DNA of 53,164 nt, filler included, from Catajapyx aquilonaris (Eukaryota): the NCBI GenBank assembly GCA_000934665.2. It is 2 parts of 2 records of this genome, joined end to end, with 100 filler letters (N's around TTAATTAATTAA, not from the genome) between each part and the next. Parts side by side here need not be neighbours in the genome. Positions count along the whole stretch, not along the records: positions 26,636 to 53,164 come from JYFJ02005191.1; 1 more part is not named here. The stretch is one strand, 5' to 3'. Made by a program: the position numbers and the translations under genes. Below are positions 26,636-53,164 of the stretch, piece by piece. How positions within the stretch are numbered: position 1 is the first letter of the stretch; each line of letters starts with the position of its first letter. Under the pieces are notes generated by a model, which was not told the origin of the DNA, made no database searches, and worked only from the letters and a program-made list of their open reading frames with translations.

Positions 26636-26918
26636 TAACCTTGCCTACGTTACAACTCGAGAACGACTTGCAGAGGTTTGGATGTTACATCACGTGACTT
26701 GGGAGTCCATTTTGAATCCAAACTTCACAGTAGGAGTGATAGTAATGAAAACCAATATTTATCATTTTAACTCCTGGTGGTCCTTTTAAATGCAATTAAT
26801 TTAAATTTTAATGTCACTATAACACTGTTACTCTCTTCTGACGCCACGGGATGGGGTATGTTTAGCTCACGCTGGGAGGCGGAACAGTACTATTAATACT
26901 ATCTCTCACATTTCACAG

Positions 26919-27588
26919 CCGTTGACGACAAAAAAAAATATGTACGTCGTGGGTGGATTGGTGTGTGCCTCCGCATTGGCTCACGATGGCTTCACTGCCA
27001 ATTTTTGGTCTGACTTATTTTTTCATTTAGTCGCATACGGAAGCCCTCGGCGGGCTCTAACGTCAAGCGATATATCAGACCCGACCGAACGGGATTTGGT
27101 AACACAGGTATGTAAATAATTATACCATAACCAAGACTATACACCAGCATAATGCCTTGTCACTAGCTGTTTTGTAAGCATGTCTTCATTCAATATTGTA
27201 TTCCCTTGTTACAGATTGAAATGTCCCCATCTATTCTGGATAGCCCCCCCCCGATGACCTAATGACGATTTTGGCAGCTACTGGGTACAAGAGCCTTGTG
27301 ACACCAGATTGTACCATGGATCACCAACTTTTATTGCGTCCATAGAATCGGCAGATGCCTAGATGATTTCTGCAAGGGGCTGGAAAGGATAGGAGTGCAT
27401 GAATTGATCAAGAAGTACCCCGAGCAGCTGAGACCTGTATTCTGTGGGAGAAAGGCAGCAGCTCTCAGCGCCCGAAAGCTTTCGGTCTTGTTCAAACCTA
27501 ATTTCACGTCACCAGAGGGCAGCAACCAACGGAGTGAGCAAGTGCGAGCACTGCACTTCTTCCGGACGTTTCTGGAAGAATGCGAAGG
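26919..27588 (+). pseudogene. G2E3-like HECT E3 ligase fragment (spliced remnant)
   Basis: YVVGGLVCASALAHDG..NFWSDLFFHLVAYG..DISD..Q|gtatgt, then LDDFCKGLERIGVHELIKKYP..PVF..LFKPNF.SPEGSNQR..FFRTFLEECE|gtaaa; the segment between is disrupted. Confidence 0.65.
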
Positions 27589-29109
27589 TAAATTAATCAG
27601 TGGAGAGCAGGGCGATGAAGTTCAGATATGCCACATTTACTCGAATCTAAGGTCATCTTTTTGACTTTTAAAAATACCAATAAATGCTGCATAATAGAAT
27701 CAGGTAGGCCTTACAAAGCATTCTGTGTGGGTGGGTGTGGGCGGGCATTGCTATTGTCACCGTTTCGTTCTTCATATATCTATTCATATGTCATCTATTG
27801 CATCATCATGCTGATTCTTTTTAACGCTTGATGAATCCTCACTTTTGTATTCTTATCTGTTTTCCCAGCAGGCTTTGAGCCTCCTGGCTACCTATATTAA
27901 ACCGGCGCAACCCGCTCCTTGAGGCCTTTATCTCTCAGGAGAATATCCTGGAGGAACTGGTCATTCTTCCCTCTCTCTCTCATCATACTGTTCCACCATT
28001 CCTTCAGCATGTATCATTTTACAATGACCATTAAAAGAGGTGTTGAAAGCATCCTACCATCTTTACTTTACCGCTCGGTCACAAGGGCATTATAAGCATG
28101 TGGACAGCAGAAAACTAATAAAATAATACTCATCAATGAGACACACTCTTCCCTTTTCTCCCCTTGTCCTAAATACATTTATTGTTCATATTTCAGCGCA
28201 ATTATATTATCTTTTACGGCGAATATACATCAAGAAATTTGAAGAAAGCCGCAACATTCACTACCATTAATGAAAGGTGTCAGTTATTTACTTGCGGTTC
28301 CGTGCCGAGAAAGTCAAAAAATATGTCAACATTCTACACATTATTTTTTTTGAGTATGTTTTCTTTCTTTCTAATTCCTCATTAAGATAGGCAATGGAAA
28401 GTTAACATTACAAGTCCTATTTCTGCCTCCATATGTTACCTTTCTTTTAGTTTTGGTCTAGAAAGACTACGAAAAGGTGATAATTCCGACCATTGCTCCC
28501 ACAGGAAAGGACGCCTTTCTTTTTTTAAGCAGTGAGAAAATGTGTAGAAATAGAGCGCTTTACTAGCTCGAAAATCTAATGGATATGCAAGGGAAAGGTC
28601 TGCCCGGGGAGTGTTAGGAAATATGAAAAAATGTATAGTAATGTCATTGCCAGGCTTTCGAATTTTTGAACACCTGAAAGGCTAGCGGCAGTGCACAGGC
28701 TGTTACCATGGGAGTTAAGAATGTTGCAGTCAGAATGTTTGGATGTCACACTGCCTCGTAAAGTGTACCACAGCAGAAGGACATTGTTGATAACAGAGTG
28801 GACAATATATCATCACTAACTTATGATATAGGATTTATTGAGAAGCCCTGTGATTCAAGCTCGAGCAGACAGCACGTTCTTTTTGGGCGCTTCCAGCAAC
28901 CAAGGTCGACTACCTACTGCATCAAATTGGGCACGTCGGGCGCTTGGGATAAAGCCCCTTTGAGTGTTTGTAGTGAGCACCCAAGCGCCCTACCCATAAT
29001 AAAGGTGAGCGGTGACAGTCCAGTCCATTGAGTCGGGTGTGATTTAATTACTGGAGGTCAACACGAATTTGGACCTTGTTTGATACCGTCCTATTCCGAG
29101 CGGCACAAT

Positions 29110-29510
29110 GGCCTTCAAATTCAAGAATCCAGTATTCAATGCCTGCGGGAGGAAGTTGGTGAGCTGGCCTTGAAGGTGCGCGACCTGGAAGACAGATCAA
29201 GACGCTCAAACGTCGTGTTCCATGGGATCGAAGAGTTACCAAGGGAGTATTTTGCATCGTTGACGGCCAAGATTCATGAAGTGTGTAAGAACCATGGCTG
29301 GTTCACGGATGACTATATGCCAGTGATTGAAAGGGCACATAGATTAGGCCCGATCAAGGGTGGTCAAAATGCAAACCAGGGGCGTCCAACGCAAATTATT
29401 GGATTATAGGGATAGAGTCTATCTTTGGGGCATGATTAGGGCCAAACCGGCCAAGGAGGTTAAAGTATCATTGGACTATTCTTGGCAAACTCGGCAAATA
29501 CAGGCAAAGT
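29110..29510 (+). mobile_element. LINE (CR1/L2/L1-type) ORF1 remnant
   Basis: KVRDLEDRSRRSNVVFHGIEE..IERAHRLG..RPTQII, frameshift, then LLDYRDR. Confidence 0.8.
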
Positions 29511-29513
29511 TGT

Positions 29514-31654
29514 TATGTAGGACCTTTGCCGGATGTGACTATGTACGATGCCGACGGTATGAGTGTGAAAGAAAGGGAGAAGTTCCTGTCGTGGCATGCC
29601 TGCGAGAAGGAGAAGCTGGGAGATTCAGGTTACGTTCTCAAGGACCAGCTAATTGACTACTGTGCATCCGATGTCTCTATTTTGAAATCTGCTTGCTTGG
29701 AATTTAGAGAAATATTTCTCTCCGAAAACGGAATCGACCCTTTACTGGAAGCTATCACCCTCCCCCAAGCATGTCACCTGACATTTAGACGCAACATGAT
29801 GCCGAAAGACACAATAGGTGTATTTCCTGCAGCCGGATACAGGAGGGATAAACAGTCTGGGATAGCTTTAAAATTGTTGCACTGGGTAGATCACAAGCTG
29901 CAGCAGGATAACGGGCAGGCTCTGATATCTAATGTAGAGAATCCAGGTGAAAAGGTAGCATTAACTTTCCAAGGGAATGGATCTGAAGTACGTGTAGGGA
30001 ACTACAAGGTCGACGGGTACTACAGAGTAGGTGACGTTACGCATATCTACGAGTTTTACTGGTGTTACTATCATGGCTGTCCTATATGCTTTTCCAGTCG
30101 GAGGACCCCTCTGGATGAAGACCCATATTCCACCATGGATATTAGATATCAACGCACCATGCAAAGGGAGGTAGTCATTAAGCAGCGAGGGAGTGTTGAA
30201 TTACATGTGATGTGGTAATGTAAGTTCAGACCTTGACATCCGAGCTTTTATTTCGACTCTCCCGTCCAATATGGAGGCGATCAATCCTAGAGACAGCCTT
30301 ATGGGGTGGCGGACTGAAGCCTACAAGTTATACTTTAAGCCCGAAGAAGGAGAGAGAGTGGATTATGCCGATGTAACTAGCCTGTACCCGTGGGTGTGTA
30401 AATACGGAGTGTTCCCTGTAGGCCATCCTGAAGTTATTACCAGGGACTTCCCTTCTCTAAGTACACGGGGTGGTGAAGTGTCGAGTACACTACCGCCAAC
30501 TACTCTTGACAAACCAGTGCTCGGCTGTAAGATAGGGGGAAAGTTGATTTTCACTTTGTGCATGAAGTGTGCTGAAAGCTCTAATCAAACATGCCCTTGC
30601 ACTCATTCCGATAGCGAGAGAGAGCTAGTTGGAACTTGGATAACGTTAGAGCTACGCAAGGCTGAAGCGATGGGTTACAAAATTACAGAGTTTTTCGAGG
30701 TTTGGAAATACAGAGTAACTCAGTATAATGCCAGCACCGGGGATCCGGGTCTTTTTGCGCCATACATTAATACTTTTCTCAAAATGAAACAGGAGAGCTC
30801 CGGGTGGCCAAAATGGTGTAACAGTGAGGAGGATAAAGCCAAATACATTTCTGATTACCAGGCTCGGGAGGGGGTGACACTCGACTATGCCAAGATTTGC
30901 AATAACCCCGGTTTGAGAGCACTTGATAAACTAATGTTAAATAGTTTTTGGGGGAGGTATGCTCTGCATCCCGGCAAGCCGCAGACTAGAGTTGTGCACT
31001 CGGCTCAACAATTATGGGAGACTCTCCTGGATCCGGGATGCCAAGTATCATCGGTTTTGCCAGTTGGTGAGGAGACGTTGTATGTAACGAGCAAGCCGTT
31101 AGATGATGTACCTTTATGTCACCCCACAACCAATGTAATTCTAGGTTCTTTCACCACTGCCCAGGCGCGCTTGAAATTGTACGAGTATTTAGAGGAGCTG
31201 CAAGACCGCACGCTGTATTGCGATACTGATTCAGTGATTTATGTTACACGGCCTGGTGATAAACCTCTCCCGACAGGCGATTAACTAGGAGAATTAACCA
31301 ATGAGCTTGAGAGTAGTGGACCCGGGGCCTCCATAACGTTATTCTGTTCAGGGGGACCTAAGAATTATGGCTACGCTGTGAAAAACGACGATGGTATAGA
31401 GTCAGTCTACCTGAAGGCCAAGGGGATTAGACAAAATTATAGAACCTCGCAGCTAGTCAACCTCGAGACCTTAAAACAAATGGTGCTAGGAGAGGGCCCA
31501 TCATCATGCCAAATTAACGACCCCCGAAAAATTGAAAGGCTACAGGATCATACAGTAGTGGGGAGGGCGGTGAAAAAAGACCTACCAAATCGTGAACGAT
31601 AAAAGAGTTCGGCATGGGAATGACTCGCGACCTTACGGATATAAAGGGGGATAG
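29514..31654 (+). mobile_element. polB: Polinton/Maverick (adintovirus-like) protein-primed family B DNA polymerase, pseudogenised and 5'-truncated
   Basis: YCASDV, KVDGY..YEFY.CYYHGC, DVTSLYP, KLMLNSFWG, YCDTDS, GPKNY, KAKGI, DKR..PYGY; stops at 30216 and 31282 plus frameshifts. Confidence 0.93.
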
Positions 31655-32838: not shown

Positions 32839-32979
32839 AGTGGAGTGTTACTTTTATTTTTCAAATCCGATGATGATTACGTGGTCGTGGGACTATACGG
32901 TCCTAGTTCTACTCTGAGGTTTTCATATATAACTATTTGTATTTGTGTAAAGTTAGTGCAATACAGTTTGTGTTCAGCC

Positions 32980-33235
32980 ATGGACGAGTACGCGTCTTCT
33001 TCCGTCTCCTTCCAGCATCCATTCACAGCAACTGCATCAGGACCAACCGGCAGTGGAAAATCCATATCTGTTGAAAACCTGCTACGCGAAGGGGACCAGC
33101 TTCTCAATTTAAAATTTGTGAGTATAATATGGTGTTATGGGGAATGGCAACAGGGCTATGGTCGCATGCAGCGTCAGTTGGGTGTAACATTTCACGAGGG
33201 GGTGGTCGATACGAAAGGTTTTGATGGCCCTGTTC
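32980..33235 (+). mobile_element. Polinton packaging ATPase (A32/FtsK-like), 3'-truncated
   Basis: FQHPFT..SGPTGSGKS (Walker A)..IIWCYGEWQ..Y..FHEG; TATATAA at ~32925; similarity lost before Walker B. Confidence 0.88.
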
Positions 33236-33857
33236 CTCAACAACCATGCAAGGAGGTGCGGAAAGACAGCATTGGACACTGGCCAGAATTTTCGGAAAAA
33301 AAAGGGTCGTTGCCGAATGCCAGGTTGCACCTAAAGTTGTGTGCGAAAAATGTAATATACACCATACTGTTTCACTCCCTCTTCCAATTGTTTCAAAATG
33401 TATCATGTGTAAATAAAACAAATGACATGTCCGTCTGTTTCATGGATTCTTCCCCTCACATGTCAAATGATAAGTGAATGTGCTGAGAAGCGTATACCGT
33501 AGGAATACCTGAAGAAGAAGTGTGTCGCGGACATTCCGAATCTCCTACAGATATTGGTAGAAAACTATAGTACTGAAGTGGAATTTCAACGTTACAGACA
33601 AATTCTACAATTATAATTTACACAAAAAACCTTATTTCATGAAAATTGAATAATATTTGAGCAATTTATGACATTTCTAGTAGAGTTACTTTCCACACAC
33701 CCTATAGTAGCAGTATGCAGAGAACGCGCAGCGTTGCCTGGGGGCAGCAGCTGGAGACAGTTGGTGCAGACGACGATGCTGACCCACCCTCCACACGGGG
33801 TCCCTGACGCTGACATGTAGCGCCATTACCGACGACACCTGGTGCGCAACAGTAGCA

Positions 33858-34255
33858 GTGGGGACCACACCCTTCAGCTTTAAACTGGACACAGGCGCAC
33901 AAGCAAACATCATACCCGCTGACATGTTGAGGAGGATGTGCCCCCAGCTCAAGTTACAACCCACCAAGGTTAACCTCAAAGCTTACAACAATGCAGACAC
34001 CGCCCTGGCCGGCATATGTACTCTCCCCTGCACATATGGGCGGGTGACCGAAGACCTCCAGTTCCTCATCACGGTGGACAAGCTGGACCCTGTTCTAGGA
34101 CTGCATGCTTGCTCCAAGGTGTTTGGTATGGTCAGCAAGAGGGATGGTAAGAAGACTCCACCGGGGACATATGTAACCGTACACGCGTCGCAGAGGGACG
34201 ACCCACATCAAGTCATACGAGCCTACCAAGACGTGTTTGACGGCCTAGGAGCACT
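33858..34255 (+). mobile_element. Ty3/Gypsy aspartic protease fragment
   Basis: FKLDTGAQANII..LKAYN..PVLGLHAC..YQDVFDGLG. Confidence 0.88.
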
Positions 34256-34262
34256 ACTCCCG

Positions 34263-34720
34263 TCCATTGGTAAAACCGTCTATCTGCACTTTGGCGCCGA
34301 AATGAGTTAACACTGCCTCGGAAATCACCTGTGCTGAATCCACCGGAAAACCGAACAGAGAAGCGTCTATCTGCACCCTATACGGAAATATAAGCGTGTC
34401 ACAATCATCTATCTGCAAGATATTGATGTAATGCCAAGGCAGAGCCGTCTATCTGCTGCTATCCAATCAGGGACGGAGGTTCTGGTCACATCGAAGATGG
34501 CGTCTCCAGCAGAAGTGGATAGGGCATGTGGGGCTTCCATTTGAGGCCCCGTTGTACCGGATCCTTTCAGTGGATTTGTTTGAAACGTGCCAGGTAAGTA
34601 ATAGAACTAGTCGTAAATCGTATGCGCAAGTAGTCTCGTGCGAAAAGAAAACAAGTGCTTGGATAAGGCGGGTTTTAAAATTTCCATTATTCTGAGCAGA
34701 TAGACGGTTTTGCCTATGGA
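34263..34720. repeat. Inverted-repeat-bounded element with iterated CGTCTATCTGC motif
   Basis: TCCATTGGTAAAACCGTCTATCTGC / GCAGATAGACGGTTTTGCCTATGGA; motif recurs near 34364, 34408 and 34446. Confidence 0.65.
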
Positions 34721-35439
34721 ATTAGGCGGACACATGGAAGAGGAAGGAAATGCAGCCTGCCAGCTAGGTGCAGATGAAGCAGCCCCTAACTTGCGTTTAC
34801 AAGTGGCTGCAGCTCCAGATGCACCAGGTAATTCATCCAGAGTAGTACGTTTAAAAATACAGAGGTTAAAATCAATTTTGGTACGCATAAGGGAAAATAA
34901 CTAGGCATACAATTGTATTTGAAATTGTAGATCAAAATGTCGACGAAGGTAATGTTGCTGGACCCAGCACACAGATCCACCCGCAACCCCATGATGCAGA
35001 CATTGAGCTGACAGATAGCTCACCATCAAGCGATTGGAAGCCATCTGATGAAGGTGAAAGCGATTCATCATTTGATGAGGGGTTTAAAAAGTTATGTAAA
35101 GAAGCTGGGGTGGTTCCCACACGTCGGATCCAAGCACATCCAGGAAGGCGGATACAAAAAAAAGGAAATTCCTTGTCTGCATCAGCAGCCAGTAATGATG
35201 CTCAGGGATAAACATGACCTGTTAAGAACTGTAATTTTGCATTAAAAGTTGCTGGATGGAGCTAATTATAAGTCAATGCTAACTGAGTAATTATTTTAGT
35301 GACAGATGTGAAGATGGTCCATCATCTGTGTTAACATCACCACCTGGAAGTGCACAGCCTGGAGCAGCAGCTTTTTCCATGATATGTTTCAGCTCTTTTG
35401 CACTTGATGAAAAATGACTGGAAGTGACATGAAAACCTT

Positions 35440-36206
35440 TGTGGTTATTTTTTCTCACTTGTTGGTGATCTTGTTGATGAAAATGGCCCTGTTTGGCAGT
35501 TTTATCTGTTGCTTCGAGACATCACCGACATTTTGTTGTGTGGACCAGTTCAGGTGGAGATATGTGTTGTCTTGAGGCAAAAGATAGCTGCCCATCATCG
35601 TATGTATGTTACTTTGTTTCGTGACACCCTGAAACCAAAACATCATTTCATGATTCATTACTCATCTATCCTTAAAAAATCAGGTTGTTTTCTGAATTTT
35701 TCATGCGATCGATTTGAAGCTAACCATCAGCCACATGTACAAGCTGCAAAAGCCACAAAATCCAGGCGAAACATAGCGCACACTCTGGCCATAAAAGAGC
35801 AGCTGAGGTGTGTATACAGGTTGATGGCACATTCAGGCTTATATCCTAAATTTGAAGAAGGGTCCGGAGGAGAAGTATTGTCAAGATCCTTCTCTGATTT
35901 TACCTGAACGTTTTAGGGGTACTATATACAAACCCAATATCTGTGTGGTAGTTGGTCTAGATAATGATAAAAGCCCTGAGTTTGGCATTGTGCAAAAAAA
36001 TATTACTAAACGAGGAGAGTGATGCGTGGTTTATTTATGATGCTCTCCTAAACGTCCACTTCTCTGAGCACTTCCATGATTATGTTGTAAAGCCTGGTGA
36101 TGGGAAATCATCTGTGCTGCTTACAAATCTTTTCGACCATCATCCAATTATGTGGAGTAGCGGATTTGATGGGAATGTCTATGCAACACTTCACCATGCT
36201 TTGTAA
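35440..36206 (+). mobile_element. EnSpm/CACTA-like (animal CMC) transposase C-terminal remnant
   Basis: LKPKHHFMIHY..G..FSCDRFEANH..NIAHTLA..Q. Confidence 0.7.
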
Positions 36207-36404
36207 AGGGATAGTAAGAAAGTGAGAATACATGTCTGACTGATGGTATTGTACATTATGTTAATGCTTCTGATGAAAATGTATTTCATGAGGATTATGA
36301 GAATGTGATATTTATAAATATCAAACACATTAAACATTAAATGTTAAGTTTTGATGTCAAACATGATTTTACAACATGATGCTGTAGTAAAATCATGTTT
36401 CCAG

Positions 36405-36899
36405 AAGAGACGGTCAAGCCAAGGAGGTAAGATTGAACGAAGACTGGCTCTGCAAAACTTGAAAGATGGCAATTCATCAAACGTGAATTTCAGATCCGAT
36501 GGGAATTTGGCCCACCAGGGGGAGGAGCAAGTGCTACTGCCAGACAGTATGCTTCAGGAGGTGGAAAAGGAGGTCATAACTCCTGCGGATGAGGTCCTAA
36601 CCATTGCAGATGAGGGTCAAGGTGATGTAATAAAGGACAACAGCTTACCCTGCAGCCAGTCCACATCTCCCACACCAACATGCGGCAGTAGCGGTAAGAA
36701 GAGGCTGGACAGGAGCGATGCCATAATGCACAACATCAACATGGTAGATGCACAGCTGGCCCAGGCCCCAGAAGACCGCCATGAAATATTTGTAAAGACA
36801 CTGGTTCCATTCTTACGCCTAGTGCCTCCTGAACTAATTGGCGCCTGCCAAATTGACTTGCTCACTACTGCTGTGAAATACTCTAGTGGCAGCCAGTAA
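36405..36899 (+). mobile_element. BESS-motif C-terminus (MADF/BESS protein, Harbinger-accessory-like)
   Basis: Low-complexity linker then DRHEIFVKTLVPFLRLVP..CQIDLL..VKY. Confidence 0.55.
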
Positions 36900-38199
36900 T
36901 GTAGTCAGTGTACAGTACCAGTTTTGTGCCATTTCACGTTAACGCCGGTTGAAAATGACACTTTAAAAATTAAAATTGAAAAATTGTGTTAAATACCCTA
37001 CGTCTACTGCAGTCCTTGCCGAAAAGAAGTGAAAAGAGGAACCTATCACCGTTTATTATCTTACACAGTATGGTACTTTATGAAGGCATACTTACTTTGC
37101 ATGCTCTAATTTTTATTATCATTAGGCAGAAGATAATGACAATATTAAATACTACGCCCGGAAGCAAAAGTGCCATGTGACATTAAAATTAATAGCTGAA
37201 GCGATAATATATTGAATACCAGGCTTCTGGGGCTGTTATCATGTCCTGCATATGGTTTCAGAAGTTAGCTTTCAGCTGAAACGCGTCATCCCCAATGAAT
37301 ACACGAGGAACTTGAAAGTCTGACCCAGGCTGTGTTTTTGGTGGTGGCAAAGGCAGGGTCCCAGCCTCCAGGTTCTTGGAGAACATGAGACGGAAACCAC
37401 AGCCCAGTACGCAGAAAGGAAGCCGTCAATGGGCAAATTCTGAGTCAACAGCTGGAAACATGGAGAGGGATATATGTAAGGCTGCATTAACTTTGAACCA
37501 GCCAATTTTCCCATAGGGGAAACTATAGGAAGCCAGGAGGCACACAAGCAATGGTTGCAGGAAGAATTTAAGAAGCAGAAAAGGAACAAAACCTAAGTGG
37601 AGAAATTAATGCCAATGACGTACGCCTCGCAGAGATATTTCATTAACAGCGGGCCAGTGGGGGGAATTGCCACCATCCGCAGGAAGAGTGGCCTTTTCTG
37701 TTTGAAAAGAGCACCATGATGGCCCACTTTGAGCAGCTAATGGGATCTCCAGCATAGGGAAGGTTCACCCAGGAGCTGGGCTCAAAAACGCCCCAGATAT
37801 TGTCATTTGCAAGAACATCAGGGAAGAGGGCAATCAAAGAAGCTTTGAATGCACTTGATGATGCTGAGGCCTTGGTCCAAAATAACATTCCTCACACTCT
37901 TGGTTTTCTCCATATTGTGACAGCGTACTTCGGGGAAGAACTGAATGTCCTAGGGCGCCATCATGATGTCAGGTCCAGGTACTCTTTCTGAAAAATAGCC
38001 GAATATTGAATCGGTTGCAATATGGAATTCAAATTAGTTGGAGTAACCTTTTCAAACACCTGTGGCGCCACTGCTCACATATTAATTTAATTTAAAAGAC
38101 GTATGAAAGATTCCTACCTAATTTTAATTACCGGAAAGTGCCCCAACCATCCCAGGTCCGGCACCGTACCTACGCGACCCATCCCAAACATCCAAACAC

Positions 38200-41375: not shown

Positions 41376-41489
41376 TGTTATGAGAGAAATTGATTTCAGT
41401 AATGTTATTGATGATTTTGCACAACACAAATCCCGCAAGGTACCTTTGCAAAATTGATGTTTTAAATGTACTCTATGAACTTGGATTCA

Positions 41490-42050
41490 TTAAAATCAGC
41501 AAAAGCTCAGACACGTGCACAGACTGTGACAGCATTCAGAGGAAGATGAAAAGCAGCCAGGATCCTGCACAACGCCAGCAACTGGAAATGGAAATGCGTC
41601 TGCATGACACTAGGGCTGAGGCTTTTTATGTCTTGAAAAAGAATATCAAGGCTAGATGTCAGGCAAGCACACAAGAGTTCGCCATAGCGTTTGATTTTAT
41701 GCAGAATTTACCACTGCCAAACGTAACAACTACACAGGTTTTCTACAGCCACCAATTATGGCATTATGTGTTTGGCATCTATGACATTGGCAGTGGGAGC
41801 GCAACCATGTATACCTTCCATGAAGCCCAGGGTAGGCGCGGACAAAATGAGGTGACATCCATGCTGTTCCATTACTTAAAGTATACATTAACCCCAGATG
41901 TGAAGATGTGGTGGTTTTTCTCTGACGGTTGCCCGGCCAGAACAAGAATAACCTAATGTTGCATTGCTGTTACTGTCTGGTCCATATCTTGCATCTGGTT
42001 GAGGAGATAACACATGTGTTCCCCATACGTGGACATTTGTATCTTCCTTG
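41490..42050 (+). mobile_element. Sola-like DDE transposase remnant
   Basis: DTCTDCD..FDFMQNLPLP..FYSHQLWHY..RGQNEVTS..FSDGC(PGQNKN)..FPIRGH. Confidence 0.75.
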
Positions 42051-42329
42051 TAGCTTGAGAATTAGGCTTAACTATCATCTATCATAACCTTAGCCCTTTC
42101 ATGTCAAATGTGTTAAATGTGCCAAACCAACCTCGCTATATATAGAGCTTCGGGCCATCTTCCCAAAAGAGCCACTTTTGCATTAACGCGGGCATAGGTA
42201 CAGCATACGCAAAGGAACGAACCACAGTTCTCAATCTGAAGCTTACAGAGAAAAACCAACATCCGATTTGGATTCAGCACCCTCGAATTAGGTAATGCCT
42301 CAAAAAATTGTTGGCCAGTGTTATCGGCA

Positions 42330-42778
42330 CATAATGAGCAAATTACGGAGGCCATCAAAGCAAAACGTCGCGGAATGCTGAAGAAAGGGGTGAGACTTCT
42401 CCCGGACAATGCCCCAGCTCATTCTGCTCACCAGACAGTGACACTTGTGGCTAGTTTGGGCTATAAAATTCTGCCCCATCCGACTGACCTGGCCCCCAGT
42501 GACTATTTCCTCTTTCCTCGGCTGAAGAATCCAATGCGTGGGAAGCATTTTCGGAACGACGACGACGAGGTGATTTTCGAGGTGGAGCACTTCCTGAATA
42601 GCCAGAAAGAGGACTTTTACAACAAAGGCTTCCGCCAGCTCATCCATAGATGGGAGAATTGTATAACTTTGGGTGGTTCATATGTAGAGAAGGACTAACT
42701 CCACCACCAAATCTTGTGTGAGTAGCTCCCTTATTTCTTGTTCTTGGTGATGATCAAAACTTTATGACAGACCTTCGC
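42330..42778 (+). mobile_element. mariner transposase 3' part with probable right TIR
   Basis: KRRGMLKKGV..DNAPAH..DLAPSDYFLFPRLK..GFRQLIHRWENCI..GSYVEK. Confidence 0.88.
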
Positions 42779-43298: not shown

Positions 43299-43395
43299 TT
43301 GAAGACCCTGCGCATGTGCTTGGAGACTCTTCGTAAGAACTACCGACAAGGTAGTTCTTACGAAGAGTCTCCAAGCACATGCGGAGGGTCTTCAA
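43299..43395. repeat. 97-nt hairpin with a 46-bp stem (one mismatch) and 5-nt loop
   Basis: TTGAAGACCCTGCGCATG...AAGAACTACC-GACAA-GGTAGTTCTT...GGGTCTTCAA. Confidence 0.95.
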
Positions 43396-43900
43396 ATAAT
43401 TGAATGGGTTAGTGCCATAACGTGCTAAGCCACAAAACCTTCATTCTGAGATATGGGCTTTCAAAAGTTTGGCTTAACATGGCAAATCATACAAAACAAG
43501 GAACATTATTCGTGATTTTCTCGTGATCTATGGGGAATTTTTCTAACTACGTGATGCCCACTTGTGAAGCACGATGGTGGGACTTTCAGACACGTGCAAG
43601 CTCAAAAAACACAAAAGTGTGGCTTAGCACGTTATGGCACTAACCCCTTCAATTGTTAATATTGCCTGTCTTTCGCAGTCGATTTCCTGTGTTCCCAGTG
43701 CGGTTGGTCCTCTCACTACCAGCAAGGTCAACAAGTGACATCTGGGTAATCTGCAATGCCCCCTCATCCTGTGCCACCTCTCCTCCTCCCACTAGATGGG
43801 CTCGGACAAGTCGCAGGTTGAAGACAGCGTGGCTGCGGCTAGACTCAGCATTAAGAGCAGTGTTACCCACACGCCGTTTTTTCTGACCATTGGACAAAGC
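43345..43900 (-). pseudogene. KIF23: Kinesin-6 (KIF23/MKLP1/pavarotti-like) motor-domain fragment interrupted by a MITE
   Basis: [41 protein letters not shown]; removing the MITE continues the frame as YLKTLRMCLETLRKN. Confidence 0.82.
43402..43650. mobile_element. MITE with AATT target duplication (Sola1-like)
   Basis: TIR GAA(T/G)GGGTTAGTGCCATAACGTGCTAAGCCACA; AATT on both sides. Confidence 0.8.
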
Positions 43901-44139
43901 GAGTTCTTCCCATTAACGCCTCAATTAGTTTGGCCCACGAAATAGGGGAAAAAGGACTGGATTTTCTTGCGGTAAAGTGATTTAATTATCACCGTTTAAT
44001 AGGTGGTATCAACCAGGCAAGAGTAACATATTACCACGATCAGAATGCATCTGGCTTCAGGACACCTGACTATAAAAGTGGGCAGCATGGAACCAGGTCA
44101 TTACCTGATGGGATGAAAAATGCGGTACAGGTGCAATTA

Positions 44140-44450
44140 AACTCCTTGCCAAGAATTGAATCGCATTATTGCAGGAAAGACACTGCTAAGGAGTACCTGG
44201 ATGCCCAACTCAACATTAGAAAATTGCGGAAAATTGTATAACATCTATTGTAACCTTTGTGATGAGAGTGGTGAAAAGAAGGTGACTGAAAGTATGTACA
44301 GGTATATTTTCAACACAGTGTATAATATTGACTTTCAAAAGCCAAAGAAAGACAGGTGCGACATGTACGAAAAAGTAAGGATAGGGACATAGACGACTGT
44401 TAAAGAGCAGGGCATGGATCAGAAGCATCTGGAGGGGATGGACGGTCCGA
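44140..44450 (+). mobile_element. Sola-like transposase N-terminal remnant (duplicate of 41070-41375)
   Basis: Direct nucleotide similarity; MYRYIFNTVYNIDFQKPKKDRCD. Confidence 0.7.
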
Positions 44451-45714
44451 ACACACACACACAAAAATAAGCAGATGTACAGTACGCCCTATGTTAATGG
44501 CAACGATGAATTAAATTTTGCTGTAAAAGTGTGGAAAAGCAACGTAATTGAATAGGTGTCTTTTAAAAGTATCCCTGTTTCCAGATTTTCCATGTAGCCC
44601 AGTTTGTGGATAAATCTGTGCACGTGGTCCCTGACGCATGGGTCACCAAAGACCAGAAAGAGTGTCAGTTTCCACCGGATGAATGGATAGGACTGGATGT
44701 AACTAAGGCGATTTTGGCGTCCAAACCATCTGTGCAATCCTGGCAAACGCTTACCATCGAAGTGGTATTTACCCGTGGTATGTATGGTTCTGCACTTATC
44801 TTATTTTCACCTGTGGCTGTAACTGTGTAGATTGCTTGCACCTCGCTCATTATTTTTCAAACAATCATTTCTAGCGGTTATGAAGAATATAAAACTGCCA
44901 GTAAGCACACACCTGGGGCTTCATTTGAGAGTTATCTATTTACCGGCACCTTTTCAAAACCGTAAAGGCCTGCATTAGTTCAAAAGGAATGCACCCATTC
45001 ACCGTAACAAAGTACTTGCAGCTAATGCTGTATTTTAATTACCTTTAAACCTTTAATTTCAGGATGTGAGAGAAATTTTAAAGAATTCAATACCTGGAAG
45101 GTTGGCATCAGCCCCCATTGAAAATGGAGGCTTTAATGCTACTGCTCGAAACAAAACTGGTCGAGGCTTTGATGAACCATGCAGTGAAAAAGTATGGAAA
45201 GTAAAATACTGGTCATTTTTTTCAGTTACATTAGATACTATGCCTTTTACAGGAGGAGGTGATTTTTTTCCCGTTACATTAGATTCACCATAACGTTTAA
45301 AAACCACGACCCCTTAAAACAAGTTCAATTCTTAAATGTGACAATGATGTTATCAATAACATGTCAATGTTCAACTTTCATTACATGCTTGAAACACATT
45401 TTTAAACAGGCCCAACAATGATGATTTTAGTGCCCTGGCACAAGCCATTGTTGGCACTTTCCCTGGTGAAGATAATGTATTGATGGAGATTTTTCCATTT
45501 ACTAGTTGAGAATTTGTCCACTTAACTCTCATCTTTTACACGCTTCCCCACAAAGGCAGGAGTTTTCCCCGCGGACTCCTTCTCGCCAGTCGCACTTCTC
45601 CTCCTTCCCCTCTTGTGTTTTATCACCACCGCTGGAGAGGGAGCTCGACCTTACAGCAAGCGCCTTACCTCCTCCTATGCTAACGCAAGTCCCAGAGGGA
45701 TCCGAGTCCTTGTT

Positions 45715-46170
45715 CCACCAGTATACCATCCATCCGCTACACCAGGTGAACAAGACAGATACTTCTAACCTTTACCAGATGCTCAGGGTTACGGCGGACC
45801 GTCTGGACAATAGGGACGTCGACACAGACATTATGTGCTTCCCCTTCCTTTATCCCAGCGGGCATTACGGCAAGCTTCACCCACGCAATATACACCTCTC
45901 AGACAGCGAGTTCGTCAAGTCCAGGCTTCTATCCTCTGACGCCCGCTACCGGAAAGATCAACAATATCTCTTTCACCTCCTGTAGGACGGCGAGCTCAGG
46001 GCCCTTTCCTCGGGCATCTTCAACACGCTCCAGAGCAGGCGGCCCTCCAACATGACGGCAGCAGCTTTTCTGGACAGCTTTCAGCAGAACGAATCCAGTA
46101 TCGGCCTGCACACGATATTTCTCAACATGCGCGGTACCAGGCAATATTGGTACCAGGCAATATTGGTACC
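45715..46170 (+). mobile_element. Helitron/Helentron Rep remnant
   Basis: DIMCFPFLYPSGHYG..RLLSSDARYRKD..YLF, in-frame stop, ..MRGTRQYW. Confidence 0.72.
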
Positions 46171-46399: not shown

Positions 46400-47420
46400 A
46401 ATGCAATGACATATGAATAACCCATACTTGAGCAATGAAGTGTACAATTACCTCTGACGTGACCCAACAGCACAGTGACTTGTATTATGACCATACATAT
46501 ATAAGCAATTAGTGCACAGGTGTAACGTTGTTTGTCCTCCTCGTGAAGAACCACTGACATCATGGGAAGCAATCAAGGTTACTGTTATATGTGGGACGAA
46601 ACCAACGGCAAAAGAGGCGCCACAGAAATCTGCACTGCTCTTCTCTCGTTCATTAGAATAAAGCGGGCGAGGGGGTGAGAGAGTTTGCATTCTATTCTGA
46701 TAATATATTGCACCGGTCAGAACAGAAATCAGTTTGTCGTCGGGATGAACAGCCATGCAGCTACTAAATATGGTGTGACAATCACTCATAACTTTCTTGA
46801 GAAAGGACATACACAAAATGAAGGAGACAGCATGCAGTGTTATTGAACACAGAGCCAAAACCATGAAAGTGTTCACTCCAGACCAGTGGTTTGCCATTGC
46901 CACGTCTGCGTGTGTCAAGAAGCCATATTCTGTATGTGAACTGTCACATGCTGACTTCATGGATTTCAAAAACCTTCCCAAAGATACAAACATGATGATG
47001 AAGAAAACAACGGATGGCAATCCGAATCCCTGGATGAAGATTCGCAGTGTCATGTTTGATAAGAACAATCCAGACAGGTTTTGCTTAGGGTAGGTTTATG
47101 ATTCAATGCAATAATATTGCAAGGTGATATACGTACTTAGAATCTAACTAGCGTAATAATATTAATAATTTGTCACTGCTTCAACAGAAACGACTACAAC
47201 CAGAATGAATATGACGTTGTGGAGCTGTTCCAAAGTCCTACCAGAAAATCCACTCGTACAGCATGACGTCGGGAATACAACGCTGTCGATTCTCTGACGG
47301 AATTACACACAACTGACCTGAAACCGGCCTATAAGGAAAGGCCGCTGATTGGCACACCAAAATTCAAAGATCTGAAGAAATTGTGTGACCAAATGCAGAT
47401 TCCTTCTATCTACCATGCCT
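46400..47420 (+). mobile_element. Sola-like DDE transposase remnant
   Basis: CYMWDET.GKRGATEI..FYSDN..GQNRN..FLEKGHTQNEGDS..VIE. Confidence 0.72.
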
Positions 47421-48839
47421 TTTACAGGAGGAGGTGATTTTTTTCAGTTACATTAGATTCACCATAACGTTTAAAAACCATAACCCTTTAAAACACGTTC
47501 CATTCCTAAATGTGACATAATGACGTTATCAATAACATGTCAATGTTCAACTTTCATTACATGCTTGAAATATATTTTTAAACATGCCCAACAATGATGA
47601 TTTTAGTGCCCTGGCACAAGCCATTGTTGGCACTTTCCCTGGTGAAGATAATGTATTGATGGAGATTCATAAGTTGAAAGTTTTCAAGCATGTTTAAATT
47701 TCAAATTAATTTTTGTAGGAAGAATATTATGACAATTACTCCTTGCTCAACACGAGGCGAGATATCAGCACATTCAGGAAATAAGATTTTATAAGGTAAA
47801 ATACCTACAGTACAGAAATCTGATTCCGCAACTGAAAACTGCTGCCACACTTAAATACTCTGAAGTATATGGTCATGATTTGGTAAGCTGTTAAAAATCA
47901 GCACAGCATTTTTCTCTTCCTTTCTGCTTATGTTACTTATTTTTTATTTAACTTTCACTTTCAGATTGACATTGACTTCAGCACGATACATTCAAGACAT
48001 GCTCTGCAACTGTTTACAAAGTGGCAGGAAACAGCTGCAGAAGCAATTGGCTGGCAACAATTGCCAGAATGAACTTCAGCACGCGAAAGAAACCACAGAT
48101 CAAGGTGAGGACCTCCGCACTTCTTCCATTTATTAACGTGTATCATTCAGTTATTGCTGTTATCCAATGAAATTAAGCACATGGTATCCAACTGTTTCTT
48201 GTGAAACTGGCAGGTGAGCAGTATATAAATAAGTGGAAAAATGTCAATAAGTGGAAAGGTAAGTGGAAAGGGAAATTTTCCACTTACCAGTAGAAAATTT
48301 GTCCACTTATCTCTCATCTTTTCCACTTACGTTCCCCACAAAGGCCGGAGTTTTCCCCCCTGACTCCTCACCAGTCGCCCTTCCCCTCTTGTGTTTTGTG
48401 CAAGTTGATTGAGAGGTTGCATCAGCCTGGAAGTGCTTGGCACAATACATGTGAGGAAGTTGCACTGGGGAGAGTCGAAGCCAGTCGAAGCAGAAGTGCT
48501 GAAGTCTCAATGAGTTTTTTCGGCCCTGGACATTCGGGGGCACCGGCGGGGACGCTGCACCAGCAAAAACTGTGAGTGTGATGTGTTCACATGACTGTTG
48601 CATACTACCCAGCCCTCGCACTCGAATGGTGCCGCTTCTTAGGCCACTCTCGCTGAGATGGTGTGCATTTTGCGGCCATGCACCAACAGATCATGCCAGA
48701 GTGACAGACAAGGGTAAGTACAATGTGTATAATATGTAAAGCAAAATTGCAAGGGACCCAAATTTTTTAAACATAGTTAAGTCGAGTCGACATTAAGCCT
48801 GGATTTTCAGAGACTTTACTATCCGTACTCTCAGCAAAA

Positions 48840-49760
48840 GCGAAGTTGATGCAGCCCGAATAACGGCAAGCAGTACTGCTGCTGGATGAAATGTCCATAA
48901 AAGAGGGTGTGTGCTAAAACCAAAAGCTGGACACGCTGGAGGGGTGCGAATATTTCGGCTCCCTCGCAGTGAAGATGTCCTTAGGATCAGGCACAGATAC
49001 ACATGCCCTGGTGCTGATGATCAGGGGTTTGCAACACAACTGGAAACAGCCCATCACTTACTTTTTAGCCCACAAGGGAACAAGGTGGTGAGCAACTGAA
49101 GCTGATTATTCTGGAAGAACTGAAGATATCAGAGGAAATTGCGTTCTCCATTCGCGCTGTCACAATGGAACAAGAACCAAACAACTAATCACAACAAAGG
49201 ATTTTATGCATTACACCGGAAGAGCCATACGTGTACTTAGAAGATGGCAGAAAGGTATACCGTCTTCCTCTCGTGCCTCACCTAATAAAAAGTGTACAGA
49301 ATAATCTGTCCAAGTACCACTGCACTGGACTCGTCTTTAGTCATTCCGTGTTAGCAGCCATTGCGACCCTAGTGACACTCGAGATAATGCCACAAGCAGC
49401 CCTCCACACATCTGTCATCTGCGACTAAATGATGTCATATTTGACATGTTGAACAGTCATGTTTTTCAGGAATCATCCAAGAGGTACGCATCGGCAGTGT
49501 CGCCACGAAATCCCTATGTTTAGGACAAACTATAAGGAGCCATCCTCTGGGTATCGACATGGAAAGCTATCGGGCGGGAAAGTCAGTGGCACCCGGATTC
49601 AACGGACTTTTGCAGACGACCAGGGCAGTCCTATTGTTTTGAGATGATCTCGAGAGGGAGCATGTCGGTTACTTAGCCACAAACCGGCTTAACCAAGACC
49701 CCTTACAAAACCTATTTTTCATTGTACGTTTCCGTTAGGGATGTTGTGATAGTCCCACTG
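48840..49760 (+). mobile_element. P-element/THAP9-type transposase remnant
   Basis: VLLLDEMSIK, ALVLMIRGL..WKQPITYF, PHLIKSVQNNL, IFDMLNS, RLNQDPLQNLF; many stops. Confidence 0.78.
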
Positions 49761-49853: not shown

Positions 49854-50990
49854 TGTAACAAGGCATGTTGGACTATATATTTTTTTGTTTGTAAGCTTGT
49901 ATTTTGGAAAGGGGCATTTCACGTTGAGAGTGTATAAATACAGGTAGGGAGGTCTTGAAGAGGAGACTCCTGGGGTAGAGTGGAAGGAGAGCGTGTGTGC
50001 TCTGTCCTTCGGGTTGGGGGTTGCGGTAGGCACCCATTCCCACTTCGCCTTTGGTGTACAAGAGTTGGAAAAAGTTGTAGAAGGAGATTGTACTTTGTGA
50101 AGTGAATAAGATCAATGTGAAATTCACCCTGGAGTTATTCAAAAACCTGCATCGATACGTTTGACCATTCGGTTGGAGACAGTGTTACAAGTGGTAGCAG
50201 AACTAGTGACGGTTCGGAACGGTGCTCTTGCGAGCGGTGGCGTTCTCGGGCAGGTACGGTGACTTGTGGATGACCAGGTGTCCCGTTTTATTTATCGCCG
50301 CCGTGGGGAAATGGCCGCGGATTTCGCCGGTCAACTGGCGCAGGCGATGCAGGCGCTTCTGCAGTCGCAGCTCGCAGCAGCAGATGGTACAAGCCGTCGC
50401 GGGTCAGACACGGCATTTCGCGACGCCGAAAGGGGATTCCTTTGATGGGACTCAGGCAGTGGGCGTCCGCGCTTGGCTATTCCAGTTGGAAGCTGGATTT
50501 GCTGCTTCGAGGATATACCCGATGACTCGCGTTTAGTGCACGTACAGGCGTTGCTGACAGCGGGTGCGTTACAGTGGTATGTTCACCACACCGCGACCGA
50601 CGGTGCGTTTTATGATTTCGCCACGTTCAAAGCGGCCATGGTCAGGGCGTTTGAACCTGCCCATTTTCAAAGCAATTTACGGCGTGATATGGCGGGACTG
50701 CAACAGGATTCTTCCGTGCAGTGCTTTGTGCGCGACTTCCTGGGCCTCGTGAACCAGTCCAACGACATGTGCGAATTGGACAATGTCATTTTTTTTTTTT
50801 TTTTTGAGGGCTCCGACGTCGTACGAGGGCGGAAATGATTTTCTGCGACCCGCAGACGCTGACTGAGGCCATAGTCATGGCCACGCAGTTGGAGAAGGCG
50901 CACCAGCAGCGGCAGATAAATCCGAAGCAACGACGGCAGGACCAGTGGGATGATCGTCCGCCTAGACGCGGACGGCCTAAAACTCCGTAT
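49854..50990 (+). mobile_element. Ty3/Gypsy 5' LTR (49854-50189), tRNA-iMet-type PBS and decayed gag
   Basis: TGTAACA...TGTTACA termini; PBS TGGTAGCAG at 50192; FDGT..RAWLFQLE, GALQWY, FKAAMVRAF, LQQDSSV. Confidence 0.8.
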
Positions 50991-51216
50991 GGCGAAATCA
51001 ATTGCATTTGCATGTTCTCGCATTATTGCGGAACGGAAGAAACAGAAAAAAAAAATTATGATCGGAAATGACGATATGGCATTTTAAATGTTGGAAAATG
51101 GTTGCACGTCTTAACTGGTATTGTCCGTGGCTGTTCCAATACAAAATTTCAAGATGAGTTCCCGTAAGGGTTCAAACAAGGATTAGGTAAGTACACAGGA
51201 CTTTCAGTATCAATCG

Positions 51217-52500
51217 AGAGCGAAGTATCGCCCAGCAGATGTTGAGACCAAAATGTACATGTCACCCCAACAATGGTCGAAGGAAGTAAGTATACCCGCT
51301 TGATTACATCTAGGCTACTGGTTAGCCTCATTCCCGAGCGAAGTATCACGCAGCAGATGTTGAGACCAAAATGTACATGTCACCCCAACAATCGTCGAAG
51401 GAAGTAAGTACCCTCATGATTTTATTGCTCTCTCGTCGTCGGATACCACTTTGCGCAATTCACCACAAGTACGGATTCCAAATATCACCACCTCACCTCA
51501 CCACGCCCAGAGCAACGGCATGGCGGAGGCGGCTGTCAAAATAGTCAAACTAGCCATCAAAAGATCGCAAGACCCTTCCTTGGCCCTGCTGTCCTATCGC
51601 TTCACTCATGATAATGGCGACATGCCAGCAGAGCTGCTGATGGGACGCAGGCTGCGATCAACTGTCTCTATGCTCCCCAATCTCCTAAATCCTCACACAC
51701 CCGACCTGGACGCTCTGGCGGACAAGGAAAGAAGTATTAAGGACGGGCAGAAACGTCGGTACGACGCACGCCATGGGGTGCAGCACCTGCCACCCTTGGA
51801 ACCTGGCATATCTGTATGGATAGCCAATATGAGGGCAGAAGGGACGGTCGTACAGGTCTCTGAGGAGCCTCGCTCTTTCCTGGTTGCCACTCCACATGGA
51901 TGTGTACGCGGCAACCACAGATTCCTCACATCTACTCCGCAGGCAGCGACGACGCCAGCAAAGGGGCCTTCGACCTCACCAGGGACCCCTAACACTGGTA
52001 CACCGCCTGGCAGCCACCACGCCAGTTCCAGAAGCCATGCAGCTGTCAACGCTGGAGCCTGTCACAAAGAGAACTGGAAGGGCGGTCCGCCCCCCTGATA
52101 AACTCAACTTATAGTGTATACTTTATGAAAAGGATGGAGATGTACTATTATCTGGAGCATGTACTGGAGCTCATTTCTCACCCAGACAAGGTAATAAAGG
52201 AAGGAACTGGAGAGCGACCCTAAGATGGCGGATCAAGCTGGATGGATGTTTTATTGCTCTCTCTAAAACCCGTCATAAGTAACTTTCACTTGTCCATAAC
52301 AACACAGTTAGCATCATTCCAGAGCGAAGTATCGCCCAGCAGATGTTGAGACCAAAATGTATATGTCACCCAAGCAACTGTCGAAGGAAGTAAACCCCTC
52401 GATTACATCTACCTCATTCCAGAGCGAAGTATCGCCCTACAGGTGTTGAGACAAAGTCACCCCAACAACTGTTGAAGAGAGCGGTACCTCCATTCCAAGA
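51217..52500 (+). repeat. Four copies of a ~100-118-bp tandem unit, split by a Gypsy fragment
   Basis: GAGCGAAGTATCGCCCAGCAGATGTTGAGACCAAAATG.. at ~51217, 51335, 52322 and 52422. Confidence 0.85.
51460..52300 (+). mobile_element. Ty3/Gypsy integrase C-terminus, polypurine tract and start of 3' LTR
   Basis: TTSPHHAQSNGMAEAAVKIVK..PAELLMGRRLRS..RTGRAVRPPDKL; AAAAGGATGGAGA|TGT at 52141. Confidence 0.85.
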
Positions 52501-53164
52501 GTAAACACATCATCCTTCACAGAACAACTGCACACTGCTTTTCACAACATAATGTAATTCAAGGCTGCCCAACAAATGCAATGTATTCCACACATGAAAC
52601 AGCCAGCTTTACAGATAGGCAGCACCACTTCAAACACATTCCAAGATGGACAAATAAATTGATGAAATTATGGTACCATTCAATAGCTGCCATTGATTCA
52701 AGCAGTACATGTTCATGATGGTGATTCCAGAATTCTCTACAACTTCAATGTATACCAAGGCTCAGAGTACTCTCAACATGGGGTGAGAGGTATTGTTATG
52801 ATTTACATGACTGCAGCTCTGAAGCAGTATACCAATCAAATAGTGTGTGCACCTCACTTTTTGTGATATCACATTGGAATGTAATACCTGCGAACCTCCC
52901 GCCCATCCGGTTTATCCCTCAGGGCGGTGGAAATAAACATTATTATCATCAATTTTCTTTTAAAAAAAAAAACGTGTGTGCAGGGATGCAATCCGTTCCC
53001 TATTGGACATTTTCAAAAGTAAAATTGTGGCTAGCATGGACGCTGCTCTTCCAAGATTTTGGACATCCTGGGAAGAGTCACTCAGACTGCTACTCAACCA
53101 ATTAGAGGACCAAAAAGCAGCTACCCCCAACAGTGACGTAGCCAGGGGGGGGGACAGGGGGCTG

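Follow-up and report, generated by a model that had tools for sequence, protein, structure and literature searches.

A one-way array of transposon and virus-like remnants in Catajapyx aquilonaris, a candidate unistrand piRNA cluster

The DNA analyzed here, hereafter the window, is a stretch of 53,164 nucleotides from an arthropod genome, Catajapyx aquilonaris, and the 26.5-kb piece studied is its right part (26636-53164), which is short and unplaced and is bounded by a spacer on the left and by the window edge on the right, because of which flanking context and promoter are not in view. What an earlier note on this DNA had called a gap left of 26636 consists of two runs of 44 N separated by a 12-base motif that carries stops in every one of the six frames; this spacer-like makeup most likely reflects an artificial joint of two separate pieces rather than an assembly gap. 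The features of the piece are as follows, in window positions.

26536-26635, no strand: spacer
27302-27661, plus: 120-aa ORF, earlier labeled HECT (label unsupported)
29032-29406, plus: probable fragment of LINE ORF1p-like type, RNA-binding part (126 relatives with E <= 0.001, the best at 1.3e-9)
29436-31281, plus: Polinton/Maverick-type protein-primed DNA polymerase B (Pfam DNA_pol_B_2, E 1.3e-5 and 5e-13; read-through)
32839-33474, plus: 212-aa ORF with a Walker-A-like motif (translation, by eye)
33783-34307, plus: retroelement aspartyl protease fragment (Pfam gag-asp_proteas E 1.3e-4, Asp_protease_2 E 3e-3; both below the Pfam cut-off)
35428-35904, plus: 159-aa ORF, weak lead to CACTA/EnSpm-type transposase C-terminal regions (Atlas)
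36348-36896, plus: 183-aa ORF, end BESS-like by eye (translation)
38339-38791, plus: env fragment of the baculovirus F/errantivirus type (Pfam Baculo_F E 1.2e-6, 27.9 bits)
38975-39052, plus: BED zinc finger (Pfam zf-BED E 5.4e-4, 20.4 bits against a cut-off of 20.6)
39591-39950, plus: DUF7869 ("Sola-like") transposase piece D, diverged, residues ~305-372 (Pfam DUF7869 E 1.1e-4, below cut-off; tblastn E 0.006)
41062-41305, plus: DUF7869 piece A, reference residues 119-198 (tblastn E 8.6e-6)
41417-42069, plus: DUF7869 piece B, reference residues 160-376 (homolog P0121 E 6e-53, 50% identity; tblastn E 5.6e-55)
42240-42695, plus: mariner transposase, C-terminal catalytic part (PDB SETMAR E 1.7e-21, Mos1 E 1e-13)
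43336-43900, minus: dead KIF23/pavarotti fragment (Pfam Kinesin E 8e-20; homologs at 62-71% identity)
43999-44362, plus: DUF7869 piece C, reference residues ~91-206 (tblastn E 1.6e-4)
45236-45621 (copy 1) and 47411-47667 with 48276-48397 (copy 2), plus: direct repeat unit (blastn 94% and 80% identity; alignment)
45506-45982, plus: 159-aa ORF, weak lead to Helitron N-terminal regions (Atlas)
46562-46828, plus: DUF7869 piece E, diverged, reference residues 295-388 (tblastn E 3.7e-4)
48795-49760, plus: P-element/THAP9-type transposase fragment (Pfam TNP-like_RNaseH_N E 2.7e-19, TNP-like_RNaseH_C E 5e-3)
50446-51068, plus: Ty3/Gypsy-type gag (capsid) fragment (Pfam Retrotrans_gag E 4.4e-6; Ty3_capsid E 3e-4 and 0.1)
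51364-52095, plus: 244-aa ORF, C-terminal half of a retroelement integrase by eye (translation)

Right of the spacer, all tool-supported transposon or virus-like coding remnants lie on the plus strand (13/13; Pfam, tblastn, PDB and a search for relatives), which upholds the co-orientation proposed in the earlier note. They comprise the ORF1-like piece, Polinton polB, the aspartyl protease, the Baculo_F env, the BED finger, five DUF7869 pieces, mariner, the P/THAP9-like fragment and gag, that is, 8 DNA-transposon parts (7 if the borderline BED finger is omitted), 3 from LTR retroelements, 1 LINE ORF1-like and 1 Polinton polB. The array was also rightly described as dense, truncated and devoid of an intact host gene, with these 13 fragments, which represent no fewer than 8 unrelated families, packed in 23 kb. 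Within the 26.5 kb that are visible, the bias can be followed from 29.0 kb up to 52.1 kb, the position of the last fragment with an annotation; ~10 kb of the piece is without annotation, its orientation being unassignable. Minus-strand transposon fragments, which in comparable numbers the earlier note had named as grounds for refutation, were sought by Pfam in 279 of the 280 stop-to-stop ORFs of at least 45 aa (ORF 26592-26786, which contains N, was excluded) and by six-frame read-through; the former gave no transposon family on the minus strand even at E up to 2, the latter no transposon domain. The only Pfam family match on that strand is Kinesin (43652-43912, E 8e-20), and no PDB relatives were found for the two largest minus-strand ORFs.

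The long-ORF excess, an annotation-free check, is confined to the plus strand, where we observe 12 ORFs of at least 150 aa (mean of 0.39 and maximum of 4 in 200 shuffles), versus 3 on the minus strand (mean of 0.65, maximum of 7), all three of which overlap plus-strand ORFs. In addition, the plus strand is purine-rich in 23 of 26 1-kb windows, with a skew of 0.034 in unannotated versus 0.064 in annotated parts. Of the internal repeat HSPs, 8 are direct and 3 inverted; a 40-bp TIR pair accounts for one of the inverted ones and small palindromes for the other two. A control, the window's other piece, shows mixed orientation (an R2 fragment on minus, Tc5 on plus), and its repeat pairs are inverted in 14 of 14 cases.

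With respect to the retroelement, LINE and Polinton remnants, relatives of the ORF1-like piece are mostly 200 to 350 aa long and match near residues 130-230; of 25 relatives scanned, a single one carries Transposase_22, and many show weak coiled-coil matches. The Polinton polymerase lacks its 5' part, the match covering profile positions 114-401 of 468, and lies in two frames. The Baculo_F match, above cut-off, covers profile positions 47-203 of 609, with Gypsy env at E 0.047, and this env piece shares one open frame of 341 aa with the BED finger (ORF 38096-39118). Retrotrans_gag (50446-50835) likewise scores above cut-off (27.3 bits). Among the DNA transposons, the DUF7869 pieces were mapped by tblastn with two full-length DUF7869 proteins as queries, which placed 5/5 on plus; piece B is the best preserved, and pieces A and C form a direct repeat (41070-41375 versus 44133-44450, 91% DNA identity by blastn). 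In the P/THAP9-like fragment, the RNase H-like N domain occupies 48795-49079 (TNP-like_RNaseH_N, ORF match 48918-49088, 70.2 bits on read-through), and around 49685-49760 the C domain has left a trace.

Several other labels of the earlier note fared less well. The putative HECT ORF at 27302-27661 has no match in Pfam (E up to 2), PDB or a search of 5.8 billion proteins, the last of which returned 157 candidates, none at E <= 0.001. The 32839-33474 ORF may be a Polinton packaging ATPase, a call made by eye from the translation; no tool recognizes it as such (Pfam gives only T2SSE at E 0.17, PDB no match), and its AlphaFold model is unusable (pLDDT 30). BESS at 36348-36896 (no Pfam match at E up to 2) and the integrase at 51364-52095 (neither Pfam nor PDB match; AlphaFold model unusable, pLDDT 33) are also by-eye recognitions, the integrase ORF being surrounded by short direct repeats (51206-51421 and 52307-52477). 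EnSpm and Helitron each retain a weak Atlas lead: the best clusters are unnamed for both (0.95 and 0.96), with DUF4218 on 12% of the members of one set for 35428-35904, which has no Pfam match, and DUF6570 on 11% of the members of one set for 45506-45982, which has neither a Pfam nor a PDB match. The units described as LTR+PBS do exist as direct repeats, copy 2 being interrupted by ~610 bp (47411-47667/48276-48397), but their LTR+PBS identity received no tool support.

The single minus-strand coding remnant is, as had been claimed, a host-derived KIF23 piece (Pfam, tblastn), so that the sole host-derived fragment is oriented opposite to the transposon remnants. It covers residues ~278-390 of ~860, is split by a ~260-bp MITE (40-bp TIRs at 43395-43434 and 43618-43657) with a stop codon at the MITE junction, and is terminated by a 97-bp palindrome (43299-43395). 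Tblastn with six full-length proteins found no other KIF23 exons in the whole window.

One-strand piRNA clusters are textbook knowledge, and the 26.5-kb piece has their layout: dense, truncated, unrelated and co-oriented remnants with no functional host gene. Clusters of this kind span tens to hundreds of kb and are defined by abundant, phased, 1U-biased small RNAs of 23-31 nt that come almost exclusively from one strand, together with a single long precursor that runs antisense to the transposons from a promoter at one end. By analogy, 26636-53164, or at least 29.0-52.1 kb, may well be part of a unistrand piRNA cluster (a transposon trap), a reading we hold tentatively and place slightly short of probable. 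From the layout we infer that the locus is transcribed and on which strand, that piRNAs are produced from it, and that orientation is under selection. RNA polymerase II would read the strand opposite to transposon sense, i.e., the window's minus strand, from a promoter past the right end of the piece, and the long precursor would be processed into antisense piRNAs against DNA transposons (the DUF7869 family, mariner, P-like) as well as against LTR retroelements (protease, env, gag), the LINE and the Polinton. Antisense insertions would be retained because they supply useful guides, and sense insertions would be lost, as the piRNAs made from them would be sense and of no use, or the precursor would terminate prematurely. 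The KIF23 piece would have the same sense as the precursor, so that piRNAs made from it would be unable to base-pair with the KIF23 mRNA. AATAAA (14/14) and ATTAAA (11/11) are equally frequent on the two strands, and thus there is no sign of terminators having been purged from the supposed precursor strand.

The best surviving alternative, which we nevertheless consider unlikely, is a transposon graveyard of the ordinary kind: a modest number of truly independent insertions would share a strand by chance, their apparent number being raised by nested or compound elements and by small local duplications. The 18 independent insertions of the earlier note were indeed an over-count: 13 remain if every tool-supported fragment is counted, and 9 events after conservatively merging protease with env, BED with piece D, pieces A with B, pieces C with E, and gag with the by-eye integrase. 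Direct duplicate segments do occur inside the array, and some of the co-orientation may come from local duplication (41070-41375/44133-44450, 91%; 45236/47411, 94%). The chance figure of 8e-6 given earlier was too optimistic, 4e-3 to 2e-4 being defensible for 9 to 13 events (two-sided P = 0.004 and P = 2.4e-4, respectively, before correction for windows scanned), and with 9 events about one such array would be expected by chance in 316 windows of this genome. Against chance stand the lower value obtained when every supported fragment is counted, the plus orientation of the two weak leads (EnSpm and Helitron) and of the three by-eye fragments, and the agreement in direction of ORF excess and purine skew over the whole piece.

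Transposons in introns show an established antisense bias, which is moderate overall and weak for DNA transposons. A second alternative, less likely still, holds that antisense copies were retained in a long minus-strand host unit (a giant intron or lncRNA) unrelated to piRNAs, with sense copies being eliminated since the splicing and polyadenylation signals they carry would disturb the host transcript. The one kinesin-derived, exon-like fragment on the minus strand agrees with such a unit; no flanking exons were found within the piece, which comes without flanking context, so exons could lie outside. However, most of the 13/13 bias here concerns DNA transposons, the minus-strand exon search found nothing beyond the MITE-interrupted KIF23 piece with its junction stop, and the polyadenylation signals lack strand asymmetry. 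That the array is instead the cargo of one large composite element (Helitron- or Polinton-borne captures) or a segmental-duplication unit, its shared orientation then stemming from a single history of capture or copying and not from selection at the locus, is very improbable: the Polinton polB, the possible Helitron N-terminal lead and a short, unplaced piece compatible with a multi-copy region would fit, but repeat comparison found no terminal repeats or element ends bracketing the array, and at least 8 transposon families show very different degrees of decay.

As regards the unistrand-cluster reading, flamenco-like clusters have the same one-way layout in the excerpt of PMC10643416 available to us, and an env-bearing retroelement fragment, as in Drosophila flamenco and flam-like loci, is present here too. 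In the excerpted sources, flam-like loci span 227 to 1,085 kb and are defined by Gypsy-family enrichment and antisense bias (PMC10643416; FlaHMM, PMC11400887), whereas LTR-retroelement parts make up at most 3 of the 13 fragments here (protease, env and gag). The label "flamenco-like" therefore does not apply in the strict sense of an antisense Gypsy/env bias as worded in that excerpt (PMC10643416), and the array is at best a candidate example of a known cluster type, well documented yet short of a discovery. According to the excerpt of PMC11400887, predictors based on strand bias are more prone to false positives when contigs are fragmented and unplaced, and the 26.5-kb piece is of this contig type.

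A broader proposition, which we regard as rather doubtful, is that in an arthropod beyond the well-studied flies and mosquitoes unistrand clusters archive DNA transposons (DUF7869, mariner, P-like) and a Polinton, not Gypsy endogenous retroviruses, and keep stray host fragments only in the harmless sense orientation. If true, such content would contrast with the Gypsy-centered fly clusters, would extend the flamenco model to another target class that includes a virus-like DNA element, and would bear on the generality of the trap model and on piRNA policing of Polintons. Confirmation by small RNAs would make this a sequence-predicted unistrand cluster in a poorly studied arthropod.

A further comparison is offered by the flamenco-like cluster of Aedes aegypti (EVE cluster 38), which in the available portion of PMC7161354 is described as ~143 kb long and 59% Gypsy, with a continuous antisense transcript and phased primary piRNAs shown and a putative Ci-site promoter. 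Compared with that description, the array here is visible over 26.5 kb, consists mostly of DNA transposons and is known from sequence alone, and its virus-like part is a Polinton instead of an RNA-virus EVE. The likeness to what that portion reports lies in a repeat-rich locus with nearly all transposons on one coding strand and mixed content, where LTR elements, a Tc1-type DNA transposon and MITEs are archived alongside virus-derived sequence (PMC7161354).

All of the transposon- and virus-like fragments supported by Pfam, PDB, tblastn or protein searches on the 26.5-kb right piece (26636-53164) lie on the plus strand (13/13), in agreement with the earlier note, which had placed every orientable mobile fragment right of the gap on +. 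The one-strand arrangement of transposon remnants is real and fairly strong. The Pfam scan took in 279 of the 280 stop-to-stop ORFs of at least 45 aa on this piece (136 on +, 144 on minus), the omitted ORF containing an N.

Plus-strand fragments of the right piece matched by Pfam or PDB.
29436-31281, +, DNA_pol_B_2 (Pfam)
33783-34307, +, gag-asp_proteas (Pfam, below cut-off)
38096-39118, +, Baculo_F and zf-BED, both in this ORF (Pfam)
39591-39950, +, DUF7869 (Pfam, below cut-off)
42240-42695, +, mariner fragment (PDB: SETMAR E 1.7e-21, Mos1 E 1e-13)
48918-49088, +, TNP-like_RNaseH_N (Pfam)
50446-50835, +, Retrotrans_gag (Pfam)

Pfam is underpowered here, since the mariner fragment, which is clear in PDB, went undetected by it. 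With respect to DUF7869, the protein search with ORF 41384-41953 gave two longer DUF7869 proteins among 215 candidates, and tblastn with these two returned five pieces, all on + (39594-39791, piece D; 41062-41305, A; 41417-42069, B; 43999-44362, C; 46562-46828, E), together with one minus match at E 0.89. For ORF 29032-29406 (+), a library of 1.84 billion yielded 126 relatives at E <= 0.001, none of them under 1e-10, with Transposase_22 present in 1 of 25 relatives scanned and weak coiled-coil matches in many; a PDB sequence search gave no match. The relatives are consistent with LINE ORF1p, with moderate support. In the unbroken 341-aa ORF 38096-39118 (+), the env (Baculo_F) fragment runs directly into the BED zinc finger. 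Either two elements happen to meet in frame here, or the ORF may be chimeric.

Several other labels of the earlier note did not carry over. The proposed HECT fragment (27302-27661) found nothing in Pfam, PDB or the protein search, and the BESS, integrase and Polinton ATPase labels are by-eye readings of motifs in the translations: Pfam gave no match for BESS at E up to 2, and neither Pfam nor PDB gave one for the other two, whose single-sequence AlphaFold models are unusable (pLDDT 33 for the integrase-like and 30 for the ATPase-like ORF). The EnSpm and Helitron labels come down to weak Atlas leads, with no match for the Helitron-like ORF in the PDB sequence search. As for the two "LTR+PBS units", the direct repeats are real (45236-45621 versus 47411-47667 plus 48276-48397, and 51206-51421 versus 52307-52477), and their LTR/PBS nature is a candidate assignment.

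The minus strand of the right piece yielded a single Pfam match among the 279 ORFs, Kinesin at 43652-43912. Raising the limit to E 2 added plus-strand matches to DUF7869 (E 0.05) and to Ty3_capsid (E 0.1), the remaining gains being unrelated noise on both strands, and a six-frame read-through with X at stops, which is less sensitive than the ORF scan, recovered the same families and no new one on minus. The two largest minus ORFs are without a PDB relative. Comparable numbers of minus-strand transposon fragments, which the earlier note had allowed it might have missed, were looked for by Pfam to E 2 and by read-through, and none were found.

The earlier reading of the minus-strand coding fragment as host-derived KIF23 is borne out, Kinesin being the sole minus family match and the ORF being closest to KIF23/pavarotti (of the 120 matches listed, most are 62-71% identical). 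When six full-length KIF23 proteins were compared with the window, residues ~278-361 matched 43900-43652 and residues ~355-390 matched 43422-43336, the latter weakly, with no further KIF23 parts anywhere in the window. A MITE-like element of ~260 bp, whose terminal inverted repeats measure 40 bp, splits the fragment (within 43299-43657), a stop codon lies at the edge of this element, and the fragment terminates in a 97-bp palindrome. The KIF23 sequence is a dead fragment. KIF23 as a live host gene carrying the array in an intron is ruled out by the single exon-sized, MITE-split piece. The palindrome beside the MITE-like element is close to perfect and is built from kinesin-derived sequence.

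Annotation-free checks give the same orientation. On +, 12 ORFs reach at least 150 aa, where shuffling gives 0.39 on average (at most 4 in 200 shuffles); on minus, 3 ORFs do so, where shuffling gives 0.65 on average (at most 7), and all three lie opposite + ORFs. Furthermore, + is the purine-rich strand in 23 of the 26 1-kb windows of the right piece, unannotated parts included. Self-comparison gave 8 direct and 3 inverted HSPs; of the latter, one is a pair of 40-bp TIRs and the other two are small palindromes. No orientation signal comes from poly(A)/poly(T) runs (5 versus 3) or tandem repeats, and searches for tRNA genes and Rfam families gave no matches and hence no orientation information.

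As to INDEPENDENCE and chance, the 18 independent insertions assumed in the earlier note are an over-count; we arrive at 9 (conservative) to 13 (liberal). The lower figure results from merging fragments that possibly belong to one element, namely protease and env, BED and DUF7869 piece D, pieces A and B, and pieces C and E; gag and the unverified integrase may also be one element. Pieces A and C have a common 310-bp segment (91% identical) that could be a local duplication. The two-sided chance of co-orientation is p = 0.004 for 9 events and p = 2.4e-4 for 13, both single-window figures, uncorrected for how many windows were read; notes exist for 316 windows of this genome alone. With 9 events, a single array of this kind could arise by chance. 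The surplus of long ORFs, the purine bias and the additional leads are all on +, which makes pure chance less likely than that figure suggests, and we regard chance combined with non-independence of insertions as a rather unlikely explanation.

The right piece is laid out like a unistrand piRNA cluster, both structural features of such clusters being found there, and the piece is a reasonable but unproven candidate. By analogy with published clusters, a precursor would be transcribed from the minus strand, starting beyond the right end of the piece, and would be processed into antisense piRNAs; we infer every RNA step, and hold this sequence of events to be tentative, close to a balanced call but slightly on the doubtful side. 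Against it, no promoter is in view on the piece, polyadenylation signals, equal on both strands (14 versus 14 and 11 versus 11), show no depletion on the strand proposed for the precursor, and false positives of strand-bias predictors are commoner on fragmented, unplaced contigs, according to PMC11400887. The layout is nearer to the Aedes aegypti locus, for which PMC7161354 describes a single antisense transcript together with phased primary piRNAs, than to flamenco. According to PMC10643416, flamenco-like loci span 227-1085 kb and their transposons run counter to transcription; antisense insertions are argued to be favoured by selection once a promoter is in place. The same paper defines the strict class by Gypsy-specific antisense bias, and the flamenco-like membership proposed in the earlier note fails on composition, because the fragments here are mostly DNA transposons and at most 3 of the 13 are LTR-retroelement parts. 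At best, the candidate cluster would be a further example of an already known type. Retention of antisense insertions in a long host transcript other than a piRNA precursor would account for the array in another way, and we judge it distinctly improbable. A composite mobile or duplicated unit is very improbable.

The window of 53,164 bases contains two single N and one 100-base block (26536-26635) consisting of 44 N, a 12-base motif with stops in six frames and 44 N, which, on our interpretation of the motif, is probably an artificial spacer between separate pieces rather than a sized assembly gap. The two halves would thus have no positional relation, and the array would concern a free-standing piece on which "+" is arbitrary and usable flanks are absent. 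The left piece (1-26535) is genic and carries ordinary host genes: bestrophin exons at 7143-13534 (+), in five ORFs with Pfam matches, and a 272-aa ORF with an RBFA domain at 24212-25027 (-). Long open frames lie 3' of the bestrophin gene at 15579-16610 (+, 344 aa) and 16498-17280 (+, 261 aa), both without a Pfam match and the former, the only one searched against PDB, without a PDB match. The two recognisable transposon remnants of the left piece are on opposite strands: a Tc5 transposase C-terminal fragment (22923-23318, +) and an R2-type endonuclease part, in a 331-aa open frame at 2818-3810 (-) that matches the C-terminal portion of R2 retrotransposon proteins (PDB E 7.6e-15). The method thus detects minus-strand elements where they are present. 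For the R2-type frame, Pfam yields just a weak, misleading L_protein_N match. R2 elements usually reside in 28S genes; Rfam found no rRNA near this fragment. All 14 internal repeat HSPs in the self-comparison of the left piece are inverted, and these pairs are probably MITE or foldback elements. Several are hairpin-like and 1-8 kb apart, examples of inverted pairs being 17524-17858 versus 18739-19072 (97%) and 22558-22998 versus 23628-24075 (94%).
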